In this document: one piece after another, positions 1 to 6,843 of the stretch
Numbering within the stretch: position 1 is the first letter of the stretch
How the letters are laid out: the number at the start of each line of letters is the position of its first letter
Source of the DNA: Alteromonas naphthalenivorans
Lineage (GTDB): Bacteria; Babelota; Babeliae; Babelales; CAIQNR01
Direction: 5' to 3'
Assembly (NCBI GenBank): GCA_047631715.1
Contig: JBLICC010000030.1
Location: 1-10,268 of the forward strand
DNA length: 10,268 nt
Notes under the pieces: model-generated
Seen by the model: only the letters and a program-made list of their open reading frames with translations
Told to the model about the DNA's origin: nothing
The model's database searches: none
Translations under genes and position numbers: made by a program

Positions 1-175
1 TGTACAAATGGTTGTACAGAAGTGTGTTGTTGCTCTGGAACCATAAGGCTTGTTGATTGATCTTGTAATGGTGCAAGCGCTGTTTGTTGTTGTTCTGGAA
101 TCATAATACTTGTTGATTGATCTTGTAATGGCGCAAGTGCTGTTTGGTGCGGTTCGAAAACTATAAGATCTGTTG
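1..175 (-). repeat. Degenerate 60-bp (20-aa) coding tandem repeat, about 3 copies visible
   Basis: Blocks 1-60, 61-120 and 121-175 align with period 60 (e.g. cttgttgattgatcttgtaatgg at 49 and 109). They encode HQTALAPLQDQSTSIMIPEQ / QQTALAPLQDQSTSLMVPEQ. The array may continue beyond the window. Confidence 0.85.
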
Positions 176-1268
176 CTCTAGGTATTGGAATAGCAAGAGC
201 ATTATCTTGTTGTGTAAATGGTTGTAGTGCAGTTGTGTTTGCAACAGAATTAACTAAATTTAAATTACGTTTACTATTTCGTATAATAAGATTTATTAAT
301 AGATCTTGTTTGTTAGGTGTGACATGAGGAGAAGTAAGGTCGCTATTTTCTGTTGTGGATGCATTAAGTTTATAGTGTGGTTGGCGTGCACTTTGTATTT
401 GTAGTGGGTTGTGCTCTGTTACCGGTATGCTAGAACTAAGAAAGCTATCGGATAATGGTGTAACTTCCATCCCTAGGTCTTGATTTTGGTTAGCCCCAAC
501 GAGTCCTGGTTTTCTTTTAATAATATCTGTTTTTAGACCGCGATAGTCTGTAGGTGTAGTTGATTGTTTTGCACTGTTTTGCATAACATGCCCTGGTTGT
601 CTAAGTATTAATTCTTTATAAAGTGGAACAGTTTTTTTATGCCTAGGCGTTTCTTTTTTTTCTTGTTCAAAAGTGTGATCATCTTCGCCACCAAGCATTA
701 TGCTTATATCTGTAGCAAAATTACTTAAATTTTTATTTGCATTATGACTTTGTTTACTACGTTTAATGAGCCGTGCTGTTATTGGGTCTGGTTGAATTGC
801 TTGAGCAGGTGCAGCAGAGATGTGTGTTTGTTCTGGCTCTGTTGAAGTTACAGGTTGAATTTTAGCTGTTGGAGTAGATTGATTTTGTTTAGGGCCAAGA
901 CTACTACGAATCGCAGATCTCATCCAATTATAAAGAGCACCGGGAATAGTATTATCTTCAGCATCAATGCTTGTATCGCTTTGTGTTTCTGGATTTTCGT
1001 CAGTGTAATATTCCGGTTCTATTCCGAAAGGATTAAGAGAACTTTGACCCATATCTTCTGGAGTTAAAATTTCAGTTGTTTCGTCACTGTTTTCTGATTC
1101 TAGAGTATTAGAGTTTACAGATGGTGCTTGGTTGCCTGTTGATGCAGCACGAATAGCTGGTTCCAAAACACGAACAGCAGTAACACCTGCGCGTCGAGCC
1201 ACTCCGGCACTAAACGCGTTTGTTGTAAGCGAAAATAAAGTAACGAGAACTATCCATTTCTTAACCAT
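1..1268 (-). CDS. Secreted low-complexity (Ser/Thr/Pro/Gln-rich) hypothetical protein, partial: >=422 aa, 3' end beyond the left edge of the window
   Basis: Manual translation from ATG at 1268 gives no stop codon down to position 3. GGAGG Shine-Dalgarno at 1274-1278 (minus strand). N-terminus MVKKWIVLVTLFSLTTNAFS-A is a Sec-type signal peptide (basic n-region, hydrophobic core, A-x-S/A cleavage region). Probably absent from the ORF track because its stop lies outside the window. No recognisable domain. Confidence 0.9.
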   Translation of the reverse strand, partial: MVKKWIVLVTLFSLTTNAFSAGVARRAGVTAVRVLEPAIRAASTGNQAPSVNSNTLESENSDETTEILTPEDMGQSSLNPFGIEPEYYTDENPETQSDTSIDAEDNTIPGALYNWMRSAIRSSLGPKQNQSTPTAKIQPVTSTEPEQTHISAAPAQAIQPDPITARLIKRSKQSHNANKNLSNFATDISIMLGGEDDHTFEQEKKETPRHKKTVPLYKELILRQPGHVMQNSAKQSTTPTDYRGLKTDIIKRKPGLVGANQNQDLGMEVTPLSDSFLSSSIPVTEHNPLQIQSARQPHYKLNASTTENSDLTSPHVTPNKQDLLINLIIRNSKRNLNLVNSVANTTALQPFTQQDNALAIPIPRATDLIVFEPHQTALAPLQDQSTSIMIPEQQQTALAPLQDQSTSLMVPEQQHTSVQPFV

Positions 1269-1524: not shown

Positions 1525-2751
1525 ATGATGAAAAAACTATTCGTATTTTTGAGCATATTTGGATTAATTACTGTGCAAGCTGCAGATCAAGTAGCAAAGC
1601 GCATACAAGTTGAGCAAGCAGCTGAAGTAGAAGAAGTAAAAATTAAAGTAGTATCGTTAGACGGTATAGAATTTGAGTTGCCCGCAGATCATAGGTTTCA
1701 AACAATTAAAAATGTTACGGATGATTTAGGAAGTGATGCACAAGATATGCCAGTACCATTACCTATGGTTGATGCAGCGCATCTTAGAGAAGCAATTGCA
1801 TTGTATCAAGCTGGGTATCAATTTCCTGTAACGGGAAAAGTATTACAAGATAGAGGCATTACGCTTGAAAGTTTATTGTCGTCATTGGATTATTTGGATC
1901 CACGAGATGATGATGGTAACCAAAGCTATTTAAAAAAATTCTATAGTGCATGGGCAAATCATGATGATAATCAAGAGTTGCCGGTATATTGTAATGTATC
2001 TGGTAATGGCATGCTTGATAGTATGAATTTAAAAACTGTGGGGTTGCCTGATACTATTCAAGAAGATCAGTTAGTATTTACTTTAGAAGATAAAAAATCT
2101 GTGCATAATTATTTAGAAAGAGCGCAAGAACTATCGGTTCAAGATCTTATGGACTTTGATAAAATGCCAAGAGTAGAACGAATTACAAGAATGGGTCGTG
2201 GAGGGGGCCGAATGATAGTAAGTTTTAATTTTGAAGGGCAACGTATTTCTTCTTTAAAAGGTTTGCAAAATGTGCCTGATGATATAAAAAACCACATTCA
2301 GGAATTAATATTTTCGGGTAATAGATTGTCTTGTATTGAACAAGAATATTTAGTGGGCTTTACAGTTCTTAGAAAATTATTACTAGATAATAATGAAATA
2401 ACAACTATACCGTGTTTTGCATTACCTTCTGTTGCAAGTTTAGATCTTGAGAATAATAATATTACTCATATTGCAGAGAATACATTTACTGATTTAGACA
2501 AGTTACAAACTATTTTTCTAAAGGGTAATCCTATCGAAACTATTGCACCAGAAGCTTTTAAAAAATTACCAGTATTAAGAGCAGTAGGAGGAAGCCGAAC
2601 TTTAGCTGCAACAATGCAACCAAGAAGTTTTGTAAATACTCCATGGATATTAGAAAATGTTTTGTTAAGAGAAACTGGTAATGATAATGTTGATTGTCTT
2701 AAATTCCCCGAAGGAGCAATCGTAGTAGAGCATGAAAGAAATGATAATTAA
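1525..2751 (+). CDS. Secreted protein with an N-terminal Skp1-like BTB/POZ domain and C-terminal leucine-rich repeats (408 aa)
   Basis: Start at ATG 1525 (AAGG 7 nt upstream) is preferred over TTG 1522. Signal peptide MMKKLFVFLSIFGLITVQA. nt 1639-1899 encode IKVVSLDGIEFEL...QTIKNVTDDLG...PVPLPMVDAAHLREAI...TLESLLSSLDYLD, matching Skp1-family motifs. About 5-6 LRRs at nt 2221-2589 (e.g. LRKLLLDNNEI, VASLDLENNNI, LQTIFLKGNPI). Confidence 0.88.
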   Translation: MMKKLFVFLSIFGLITVQAADQVAKRIQVEQAAEVEEVKIKVVSLDGIEFELPADHRFQTIKNVTDDLGSDAQDMPVPLPMVDAAHLREAIALYQAGYQFPVTGKVLQDRGITLESLLSSLDYLDPRDDDGNQSYLKKFYSAWANHDDNQELPVYCNVSGNGMLDSMNLKTVGLPDTIQEDQLVFTLEDKKSVHNYLERAQELSVQDLMDFDKMPRVERITRMGRGGGRMIVSFNFEGQRISSLKGLQNVPDDIKNHIQELIFSGNRLSCIEQEYLVGFTVLRKLLLDNNEITTIPCFALPSVASLDLENNNITHIAENTFTDLDKLQTIFLKGNPIETIAPEAFKKLPVLRAVGGSRTLAATMQPRSFVNTPWILENVLLRETGNDNVDCLKFPEGAIVVEHERNDN

Positions 2752-4688: not shown

Positions 4689-4718
4689 TTGTTTTTGTCC
4701 TTTAGGAACTGCTATGCT
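4689..4718 (+). promoter_or_regulatory. Putative extended -10 sigma70 promoter for the large LRR gene
   Basis: TTGTTT (4689-4694), 18-nt spacer, TGc-TATGCT (-10 hexamer at 4713-4718). It overlaps the ORF-track ATG at 4714, which supports a downstream true start. Confidence 0.5.
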
Positions 4719-4761
4719 TATTTTAATGTTGGAAATTAAGTTAAATGTTATGGAGAGAGTT

Positions 4762-6843
4762 ATGAAAAAGTTGCTTTTATTATTAAGTTTATGTGGAGTA
4801 TTAGTATTGCAGGCTTCTGATCATTATGATAATGATTTTCTACCTTTAGAAGAGTTACAACAAGATGATTTAACACCCGGTTCACGATTAAGTTCAGAGG
4901 CAGTTTCACCTAATGAATTTATAGAGTTAAATGAACTGCAAAAGGCTGTACTAGCAGAAGAATCACCTCGTTTTAATCGAAGTTCACCTCTTTCTCCAGC
5001 GATATCCGGAATCCGTAGTCAATCATCACTTTCAAGAAGGGGAAATGTATCTCCAGCAATACCGGGGATCCGTAGTCAATCTTCACTTTCAAGAACGGGA
5101 AATGTATCTCCAGCTACATCAATATTTTCTAGTAGGCCAAGATCTTCTTTATCTAGTATATTCAATAGAAGATTTTCAAATTCAAATTCTTCAAGTAGTT
5201 CGTCTTCATCTACTCCTCCACCTATAATAAAGCCTTCTATTAGACCAATTCAGTCATTAAATACGACTGATCCTATAATAAGTAATAAAGGTTGTACTCT
5301 TAAATTTGAAAAAAACAGTTTTATAACTTTTAAACATTTAGATGATCTAATTTCCGCTCCAAAAAAATCAAAAATAAAATCTTTGATTTTTTCTCATAAC
5401 AACATAACTAAAATCAAAGTAGGTGATCTTGAAAAATTTACTGAATTACTAGAACTAGATTTTTCTAATTGTTCTATAGAAGAAATTGAACCAGGAGCTT
5501 TTAAGGGTCTTGTAAAATTACAAAAATTGAATTTATCTGATAATAAAATAGTAGAAATAAAATCAGGAACCTTTGAAAATCTTACTGTATTAGATACATT
5601 ACATCTTTCTAGTAATGGAATAACAAAAATTGAACCAGAAGCCTTTAGAGGTCTTTCTGTATTGAGTTATTTAGATCTTAATTATAATAAAATAACAAAA
5701 ATTGAACCAGACGCCTTTAAAGGTCTTTCTGCATTGTATAAATTAGATCTTTCTAGTAGTAAAATAGTAGAAATTAAACTAGGAGATTTTGAAGGTCTTT
5801 CTACATTGAGGTTTTTAGATCTTAATCGTAATAAAATAGCAAAAATTGAACGAGAAGCCTTTAAAGGTCTTTCTGCATTGTATAAATTAGATTTATCTAA
5901 TTGTTCTATAGAAGAAATTGAACCAGGAGCCTTTGAAGGTCTTTCTGCATTGTATAAATTAGATCTTTCTAGTAGTAAAATAGAAGAAATTCAACCAGGA
6001 GCCTTTCAAGGTCTTTCTTCATTAAATTCTTTACAACTTGATAGTAATAAAATAACAAAAATTGAACCAAAAGTTTTTGAAGGTCTTTCTGCATTAAATT
6101 CTTTAAATCTTAATCGTAATAAAATAGCAAAAATTGCACCAAAAGTTTTTGAAGGTCTTTCTGCATTGGATGAATTAAATTTTTCTAGTAATAAAATATC
6201 AAAAATTGAACTAGGAGCCTTTGAAGGTCTTTTTACATTGAGGTCTTTATATCTTTCTAATAATGAAATAACAAAAATTAAACCAGGAATCTTTGAAGGT
6301 CTTTCTACATTGGATTTTTTAGATCTTGATCTTAATAAAATAGCAAAAATTGAACCAGGAACCTTTGAAGGTCTTTCTGCATTGGATAATTTATATCTTT
6401 CTAATAATGAAATAGCAAAAATTGAACCAAGAGCTTTTGAAGGGCTTTCTGTACTGAATGAATTATCTCTTGATAATAATAGAATAAAAACAATTGAACC
6501 AAGAGCTTTTGAAGGGCTTTTTGTACTGAATGAATTAAATCTTGATAATAATAGAATGATAAAAATTAAGAAAGATAGTTGGGTAGGGCTTTCTAAATTA
6601 CAAAAATTGAATTTATCTAATAATAGTATCAATGAAATAGATAACTATGCATTTACACATTTTAAAAATATAAAACATATTGATCTTAATAAAAATAAAA
6701 TAACTACTCTTAAGGAAAACGCTTTTCATGATTTATCACCTACATTAAAGGTATTGAAAATACATAATAGTTTTTCAATAGGAAAAAATGAAAAAATTAA
6801 CGAAATTTTAGGAACTATTAATCCAAGTGTAAAGATCAAATAA
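4762..6843 (+). CDS. Secreted leucine-rich repeat protein (693 aa): signal peptide, acidic then Ser/Arg/Pro-rich region, 19 'typical'-class 24-aa LRRs
   Basis: ATG 4762 has GGAG at 4752-4755 and begins a signal peptide MKKLLLLLSLCGVLVLQA. LRR consensus LxxLxLxxNxIxxIEPxAFEGLSx. Visibly more AT-rich than gyrA. Confidence 0.93.
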   Translation: MKKLLLLLSLCGVLVLQASDHYDNDFLPLEELQQDDLTPGSRLSSEAVSPNEFIELNELQKAVLAEESPRFNRSSPLSPAISGIRSQSSLSRRGNVSPAIPGIRSQSSLSRTGNVSPATSIFSSRPRSSLSSIFNRRFSNSNSSSSSSSSTPPPIIKPSIRPIQSLNTTDPIISNKGCTLKFEKNSFITFKHLDDLISAPKKSKIKSLIFSHNNITKIKVGDLEKFTELLELDFSNCSIEEIEPGAFKGLVKLQKLNLSDNKIVEIKSGTFENLTVLDTLHLSSNGITKIEPEAFRGLSVLSYLDLNYNKITKIEPDAFKGLSALYKLDLSSSKIVEIKLGDFEGLSTLRFLDLNRNKIAKIEREAFKGLSALYKLDLSNCSIEEIEPGAFEGLSALYKLDLSSSKIEEIQPGAFQGLSSLNSLQLDSNKITKIEPKVFEGLSALNSLNLNRNKIAKIAPKVFEGLSALDELNFSSNKISKIELGAFEGLFTLRSLYLSNNEITKIKPGIFEGLSTLDFLDLDLNKIAKIEPGTFEGLSALDNLYLSNNEIAKIEPRAFEGLSVLNELSLDNNRIKTIEPRAFEGLFVLNELNLDNNRMIKIKKDSWVGLSKLQKLNLSNNSINEIDNYAFTHFKNIKHIDLNKNKITTLKENAFHDLSPTLKVLKIHNSFSIGKNEKINEILGTINPSVKIK
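4993..5114 (+). repeat. 57-bp (19-aa) coding tandem duplication, about 2.1 copies
   Basis: tctccagc recurs at 4993, 5050 and 5107. Encodes SPAISGIRSQSSLSRRGNV / SPAIPGIRSQSSLSRTGNV / SPA. Confidence 0.92.
5374..6744 (+). repeat. 72-bp coding tandem array (19 LRR units)
   Basis: Units start at 5374+72(n-1). Recurrent framework blocks such as aaaattgaacca and tttgaaggtctttctgcatt. Confidence 0.95.

Follow-up and report, generated by a model that had tools for sequence, protein, structure and literature searches.

Here, we report a bacterial protein of Skp1 ancestry and fold that has lost the Skp1 helices alpha7 and alpha8 and is fused to leucine-rich repeats (LRRs). It is encoded in a 10,268-nucleotide stretch of DNA (the whole stretch analyzed, hereafter the window) from a genome of the order Babeliales, phylum Babelota (Dependentiae/TM6; 845 kb, 58 contigs, 90% complete; GC content, 35.6%). 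Its best explanation, which we regard as evenly poised between right and wrong, is that of an exported protein that, once delivered to a protist host, acts there as a single-chain cullin adaptor. Skp1 fusions of this kind form a phylum-wide family, not a one-off.

The gene, its protein, and its neighbors

The protein (Table 1) consists of a signal peptide, a Skp1-type BTB core, a linker of ~80 residues, and LRRs. A further ATG codon at 1528 follows the TTG and ATG candidate starts, and the 408-aa form is entry P0002 in our protein collection. The signal peptide was called by inspection and a home-made hydrophobicity heuristic.

Table 1. Features of the Skp1-LRR gene (positions in the window)
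Feature	Position	Strand	Details
Open reading frame (ORF) of the Skp1-LRR protein	1522 (TTG)/1525 (ATG)-2751	+	409 aa from TTG, 408 aa from ATG
Signal peptide, Sec-type (predicted)	1525..1581	+	Basic N terminus followed by a hydrophobic core, probably cleaved after aa 20; read from sequence
Skp1-derived BTB core, aa 40-147	1639..1962	+	Pfam, phmmer, profile, model, Foldseek, VIA-align, family alignment
PVPLPM, at the position of the Cul1-contacting PxPN of Skp1	1750..1767	+	Asn replaced by Met82; PDB alignment, family alignment
DYLD, at the position of NYLD of Skp1	1888..1899	+	Asn replaced by Asp123; family alignment
Folded linker of ~80 residues	1963..2202	+	Conserved in the LRR subfamily; without family match
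LRR solenoid	2203..2691	+	Pfam LRR_8, E=1.6e-18; 4 canonical typical-class repeats plus 2-3 degenerate repeats

The gene lies between a divergent gene without a known family and a convergent gene that we take, from its sequence, to be lepA-like; the stop codons of the two convergent genes overlap (TTAA, window 2748-2751), leaving zero intergenic space. The divergent ORF (window 3-1268, minus strand; at least 422 aa) has a signal-peptide-like start and low-complexity repeats and was without a Pfam match. A second secreted-looking LRR protein (window 4714-6843, plus strand; 709 aa), in which a Ser-rich, low-complexity N-terminal part replaces the Skp1 core, sits in a stretch of ~25% GC, versus 36% for the genome. 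A run from a second study reproduced the Skp1-LRR gene without differences over 1438-1785, 1789-1960, and 1978-2362, with the reading frame intact in the pieces covered. Run X1 contained a 125-base variant contig over window 2037-2161 whose linker sequence differs at 12 positions, affecting 10 codons (5 of them synonymously and 5 not), and which represents either a second allele or a close paralog.

About five to six LRRs had been predicted originally. LRRs are indeed present, as four canonical LxLxxNxI repeats (at aa 262, 286, 307, and 331) plus two to three degenerate ones; they are of the "typical" 24-residue class, resembling LGR5/Nogo-receptor ectodomains, and are not demonstrably of the FBXL type. 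The last ~30 residues were poorly modeled, and a fold search with the full-length model returned LRR proteins only.

The Skp1-type core, its cullin-facing motifs, and the linker

Every Skp1-like peptide quoted in the original prediction was found after the signal peptide, in the order given there. Pfam Skp1_POZ (PF03931) matched aa 40-91 of the whole protein with 18.6 bits (E=0.0021; below the cut-off of 21.9) and the excised domain with 21.9 bits (E=0.0002), exactly at that cut-off, and a paralog scored 39.4 bits. When the protein was searched against the PDB with phmmer, the best 23 of 31 distinct matches were Skp1 (top E=4e-4), and no Elongin C or Cul3-type BTB chain was retrieved at E<=10. 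Modeling of aa 37-228 from 40 sequences gave a BTB fold with a mean pLDDT of 90.4; Foldseek placed Skp1-containing entries first (best E=1.3e-3, none below 1e-3), with Elongin C entries entering the list at rank 36. VIA-align matched the model to Skp1 (1ldk_D) with Z=8.1 over 105 residues (rmsd, 4.1; identity, 28%), a Z on a par with that of further BTB folds (8.9 for Nac1 and 8.7 for Elongin C), but identity to these was just 15-21% and was highest for Skp1 among the BTB-fold rows. Given the PDB matches, the model, the Foldseek ranking, and the VIA-align identity, the likeness of the core to Skp1 is real, and the observation is confirmed. A family profile of 40 domains (39 non-eukaryotic rows and one eukaryotic Skp1) matched Dictyostelium Skp1A in the PDB at E=2e-32 and Elongin C at 1e-7 to 4e-13, favoring Skp1 by ~19 orders of magnitude; of the best 60 of 66 matches, none was a Cul3-type BTB. 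A word-seeded homologue search with aa 30-230 found the protein itself alone, and ESM Atlas features, matched at <=0.80, are leads only.

The core comprises B1-B3 and A1-A5 of the BTB fold (strands at 40-44 and 50-54; helices at 60-74, 85-96, 105-110, 115-125, and 136-145), with helix A1 shortened and, as in Skp1, a short helix between A3 and A4. The C-terminal helices that hold the F-box in Skp1 had been thought unrecognizable here; alpha7 and alpha8 are missing as expected, but the A5/alpha6 helix is present at aa 136-145, beyond a 6-residue insertion after DYLD. PF01466, which covers alpha7/alpha8, was found neither in the source genome at E<=1 nor in any of 261 phylum genomes, while its positive control rang.

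In the 1LDK structure, the NYLD segment of Skp1 contacts Cul1. Alignment bore out that the Asn is changed both there and in PxPN (DYLD, Asp123; PLPM, Met82), so the window copy is a drifted member, among the more degenerate of the family. Across 83 family domains from 39 genomes, the NYLD Asn position held Asn in 48 and Asp in 24, followed by Tyr in 56 (Phe in 16), Leu in 74, and Asp in 56; the Asp of DLG was kept in 58 and the PxP prolines in 58 and 52, with the PxPN Asn in only 28 (3 of 15 rows in the LRR subfamily). Cullin-side positions are among the best kept family-wide, a conservation in which surface and core are taken together and which could in part be fold-driven. In Skp1, PxPN is a point of contact with Cul1, whereas the F-box is bound by alpha7/alpha8 (PMC1257465).

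For complex prediction, aa 37-228 were paired with the N-terminal 280 residues of P0025, a protist-like metagenomic cullin named cullin 1 by its source; it is 40-43% identical to plant CUL1-kind cullins (its nearest named relatives), has Cul3 as its best PDB match, and stands equally close to human Cul3 and Cul1. The ipSAE was 0.49 (runs, 0.49, 0.57, and 0.44) versus 0.00 for the best of three controls, with contacts agreeing at >=77% and a partner pLDDT of 71-75. The score mark was reached by 116 of 157 solved pairs and by 2 of 215 mismatched pairs; at <=0.60, it was reached by no more than 18 of the solved pairs but by both mismatches, and the value of 0.49 may come from likeness to the solved textbook Skp1-Cul1 pair. 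The prediction thus read faintly suggests that aa 37-228 could bind a cullin. For the claim that the core docks on a host cullin, whichever its type, this result (weakly) and the family-wide conservation of PxP(N) and (N/D)YLD speak in favor.

The linker occupies the place where alpha7/alpha8 and the F-box would be; the rows of the structural alignment covered model residues 1-112. Pfam assigned no family to the window linker and gave no F-box-like match in the source genome, and no F-box was detected in 78 family linkers (Pfam; best five matches where WD40 crowds). F-box-like proteins are encoded in 40 of 261 Babelota genomes; one genome (G024), without Skp1 fusions, had at least 25 such matches, a lineage-specific expansion of the classical F-box strategy. 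A motif, [LIF]Px[ED][ILVM], occurred in 28 of the 78 linkers (14 of 38 genomes) versus 1.3 +/- 1.1 in shuffles. As LPx(E/D)I it sits after the last Skp1 helix of many relatives, is absent from the window protein, and resembles the way in which an F-box begins. A profile built from 22 motifs picked by hand matched LRR proteins and no F-box chain, and the subfamily linker did not align to LPx(E/D)I linkers (hhalign probability, 0.4). Three tests left the motif untied to F-boxes, and the reading as an F-box remnant was set aside, to be kept as a lead only. Since the F-box itself contacts Cul1 and contributes to binding (PMC9507964), the linker must replace that contact or the affinity would be low.

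Distribution of Skp1 fusions

The source genome holds eight family members (five of them complete, with LRRs, and the other three truncated at contig ends), of which three lie in tandem on contig C1 and two on C2; the sole other genome of the genus (95% complete) had no family match. C1:2-382 and C1:1733-3679 are nearly identical over 121 codons (3 synonymous and 4 nonsynonymous changes), which points to a recent tandem duplication. PF03931 occurred in 46 of 261 Babelota genomes (45 above the cut-off) and in 0 of 14 controls; a survey of signal peptide plus Skp1-like plus repeat architectures had been proposed originally, but the scale of the family had been understated. The family profile matched 61 of the 261, a partly circular figure, because the profile includes rows taken from these genomes as well as signal-peptide columns. 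Fetched loci, a subset of the matches, yielded 83 distinct proteins from 39 genomes. The signal-peptide heuristic was positive for 75 of 82 members with an intact start, versus 172 of 407 source-genome ORFs of >=250 aa.

C-terminal modules of 29 representatives (one per genome) were 14 beta-propellers, 3 LRRs, 2 ankyrins, 1 M48 peptidase, and 9 unrecognized; the receptor classes are those of F-box and BTB proteins (PMC4209131). PF00651 (BTB) was found in 3 of 261 genomes, once in the same gene as a Skp1_POZ match, with weak co-matches on 3 of 33 relatives and none on the Skp1-LRR protein or in its genome. No cullin was matched in the 261 genomes, and positive controls rang in giant-virus bins. 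The M48 fusion (L030:334-1692, minus strand) joins a signal peptide and Skp1 core to a metallopeptidase, an enzyme instead of a repeat module. Six proteins (P0059, P0063, P0073, P0088, P0092, and P0107), several with signal peptides, combine a Skp1 core with Lcl_C (DUF1566), and three entries (P0032, L045:2618-7459, and L053) have two or three tandem Skp1-like cores per chain.

A search of 1.84 billion representatives returned 15 matches: the protein, 2 paralogs, 8 subfamily members, 2 short fragments, 1 doubled-domain protein, and 1 eukaryotic Skp1. Among 120 of 151 matches listed in a search of longer proteins, 50 were read as lacking PF01466 (36 of them secreted-looking), all 7 named bacterial rows were Babeliales, and RCC1, Lcl_C, and MYND were further fusion modules. 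A genome-collection scan with one relative gave two Babeliales loci and a short 31-residue match in a Ruminococcus contig, at a sensitivity too low for a conclusion on absence elsewhere than in this phylum. A quick tree set 40 fusion domains apart from 14 full-length Skp1 cores of eukaryotes and pandoraviruses (SH-aLRT, 98), with the window LRR subfamily as its own long-branched group; the trees were quick, with unfinished searches, and unrooted, and cannot give donor, direction, or number of transfers.

Four Skp1-core fusions without a signal peptide (P0067, P0115, P0145, and P0150) are joined to RCC1 repeats or to a MYND finger and ankyrins, and P0067 ends in a Tyr/Lys-rich tail that we associate with giant viruses of Mimiviridae; the fusion design may thus be shared with giant viruses. 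Five giant-virus contigs (L092-L096) carry full-length cullins, two of which (L092 and L095) resemble plant/protist CUL1, and one Skp1-bearing giant-virus bin had no cullin match. Three viral Skp1 proteins that were fetched are stand-alone, not fused to repeats.

Proposed function, alternatives, and known systems

In the best explanation, a captured eukaryotic Skp1 core kept its cullin-facing surface, lost the F-box-holding helices, and was fused to a variable target-binding module (in the window, LRRs). Following Sec export and release into the protist host cell, the core would replace Skp1 on the first repeat of a host cullin of the Cul1 type, the linker would take the structural place of the F-box, and the LRRs would bind a protein of the host (or of a co-infecting microbe) and bring it forward for ubiquitination; with their differing repeat arrays, the paralogs would address different targets. 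Of this, the Skp1 ancestry and fold, the loss of alpha7/alpha8, the fusions, the signal-peptide-like N termini, the family expansion, and the lack of a bacterial cullin are shown, whereas export and delivery, docking, cullin type, and ubiquitination are what we infer. A Sec signal alone reaches the periplasm only, and 42% of long source-genome ORFs pass the same heuristic. Cultured Babelota live as intracellular parasites of protists and are rich in repeat proteins with signal peptides and in proteins of the ubiquitin system (PMC4378268, PMC6561590): secreted ankyrin proteins are numerous in Babela, which also has ubiquitin-system proteins (PMC4378268), signal peptides are found on 44% of the proteins of Chromulinavorax (PMC6561590), components of type II secretion are encoded in TM6 genomes (PMC4776705), and the host range of the phylum is described as largely undefined (PMC12172432). 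That such a chain replaces both Skp1 and the F-box protein, as originally proposed, gains in part from its Skp1 ancestry, the phylum-wide loss of the F-box-binding helices (PF01466, 0/261), and the repeated fusion to receptor-type repeats. A wider proposal, to which we lean slightly less than to its contrary, is that Babelota turned a captured two-chain Skp1/F-box system into a monomeric single-chain Cul1 adaptor, shuffled it onto WD40, LRR, ankyrin, RCC1, Lcl_C, and peptidase modules, and shared it with giant viruses; Skp1 was perhaps captured with the first F-box helix, left as LPx(E/D)I in many relatives.

An unlikely, though not negligible, alternative is a drifted copy or non-cullin scaffold: the Skp1 core of this LRR subfamily would survive as a structural N-terminal LRR cap, or the protein would stay periplasmic or at the surface, with cullin binding gone. 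The two changed Asn residues, the shortened helix A1, the 6-residue insertion, and the long branch to the subfamily fit this, as do the best-kept subfamily residues (Y, W, and N), which are located in the helix that follows DYLD and suggest a fold particular to the subfamily, the fewest LRRs and a degenerate C terminus among the five complete paralogs, and the likeness of the LRRs to extracellular typical ones. Yet the subfamily keeps the DLG Asp in 14 of 15 rows and the first PxP proline in 13 of 15, paralog C1:392-1711 keeps PLPNI, the frame is intact in the second-study pieces, and the complex predicted with the window copy itself passed the mark, weakly. Lacking alpha7/alpha8, the Skp1 core is unable to load F-box proteins of the host (PMC1257465); if it binds a cullin, it would therefore do so in competition with host Skp1, and the protein could be a decoy that binds host cullin, displaces Skp1/F-box pairs, and blocks SCF, its LRRs serving localization rather than the capture of substrates. 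We consider this improbable: a decoy needs no diversified repeat module, but such a module is present in nearly every member and is the main point of difference among paralogs.

The Skp1-specific DLG and PxP motifs, the profile's preference for Skp1 over Elongin C, and the lack of Cul3-type BTBs among its best 60 of 66 matches all weigh against a single-chain adaptor for another cullin (Cul3, or Cul2/Cul5 through an Elongin C-like core plus a fused box), as does the monomer model, in which no ordered N-terminal dimerization extension is seen between signal peptide and core. That reading, quite improbable to us, draws on a one-chain architecture that is that of Cul3 adaptors (PMC3597819), on the tie of BTB and Elongin C folds with Skp1 in Z, on the equal closeness of P0025 to human Cul3 and Cul1, and on Elongin C bridging to Cul3 in a viral complex (PMC13769053). 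Very little credence is given to an F-box sponge, in which the core captures host or bacterial F-box proteins, not a cullin. Helices equivalent to alpha5 and alpha6 of Skp1, which lie near the F-box in Skp1 structures, are present in the model, and F-box-like proteins do occur in the phylum. Still, alpha7/alpha8, the critical F-box surface (PMC1257465), are absent, the source genome is without an F-box-like match, and genomes with F-boxes and with Skp1 fusions overlap at chance (10 shared, 9.3 expected).

Should the wider proposal hold, cullin ligases would be open to hijack by a third route, one that bypasses host Skp1 and its regulation, and a possible origin of single-chain BTB adaptors would have a living counterpart. 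Skp1 is described as a stand-alone adaptor and the single chain as a mark of Cul3 adaptors, a division that a family of Skp1-core fusions would break. Present in about a fifth of phylum genomes, the family would give a first concrete and testable mechanism for the manipulation of protist hosts by Babelota, along with dozens of natural single-chain recruiters for CRL1. For targeted degradation in Dictyostelium, fusions of Skp1 to a receptor have already been engineered, with full Skp1 and an F-box kept (PMC13020093). If the window copy does not bind cullin, better-conserved relatives (such as L037, L008, and L010) carry the question. No report of Skp1-derived fusions in bacteria was found in the literature searched, mostly open-access, and the term Skp1 was absent from the main texts of Babelota genome papers, bar one reference title; supplements of PMC4776705 (table S6), PMC4378268, and PMC4209131 could list such domains.

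Among known systems, Skp1 shares with the Skp1-LRR protein the core BTB fold, the Skp1-specific motifs, and the short A3-A4 helix and gives its best sequence and Foldseek matches. Skp1 consists almost entirely of the core and alpha7/alpha8 and needs a separate F-box protein (PMC1257465); the Skp1-LRR protein lacks alpha7/alpha8 and an intact PxPN, is fused to repeats, and has a signal peptide. Elongin C is a core without helix A5 and without DLG or PxP, whereas the Skp1-LRR protein has A5 and Skp1-like motifs. Chloroviruses, likewise parasites of microbial eukaryotes, encode their own Skp1 (A039L) and ankyrin partners (A682L/A607R), with adaptor and receptor as separate genes (PMC7019647). The bacterial F-box effectors (Legionella AnkB, Ralstonia GALA/RipG, and Orientia Anks) also steer host SCF with a repeat domain, through LRR or ankyrin receptors, but supply an F-box and depend on host Skp1, while no F-box was detected in the Babelota fusions.

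The strategy distinct from F-box effectors that was put forward originally had overlooked that a single-chain design is known from Cul3 BTB and Protochlamydia BTB-LRR proteins and so has precedent in protist-associated bacteria. Cul3 BTB adaptors (BTB-BACK-Kelch, MATH-BTB, and BTB-ankyrin) have cullin adaptor and substrate receptor in one chain, an architecture common to the Babelota fusions; a helical 3-box after the core stands in for the F-box, and they dimerize through an N-terminal extension and bind Cul3 (PMC3597819); no sequence match to them was found for the Skp1-LRR protein. The Protochlamydia PEX1 BTB-LRR family (73 secreted members [PMC4209131], first noted as 43 proteins [PMC1257465]) likewise belongs to a protist-associated bacterium and is expanded, with an N-terminal BTB fold, C-terminal LRRs, and a proposed hijack of host ubiquitination. 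By description, PEX1 proteins are set apart as BTB/POZ with type III signals, whereas the Babelota fusions match PF03931, not PF00651, have Sec-type signals, come from another phylum, and also carry WD40, ankyrin, and other modules. The Skp1-LRR protein is a member neither of Skp1 proper nor of the F-box or Cul3 BTB proteins and may, by analogy, work like a single-chain cullin adaptor, a strategy that is not new itself, being preceded by Cul3 BTB adaptors and chlamydial BTB-LRR proteins (PMC3597819, PMC4209131).
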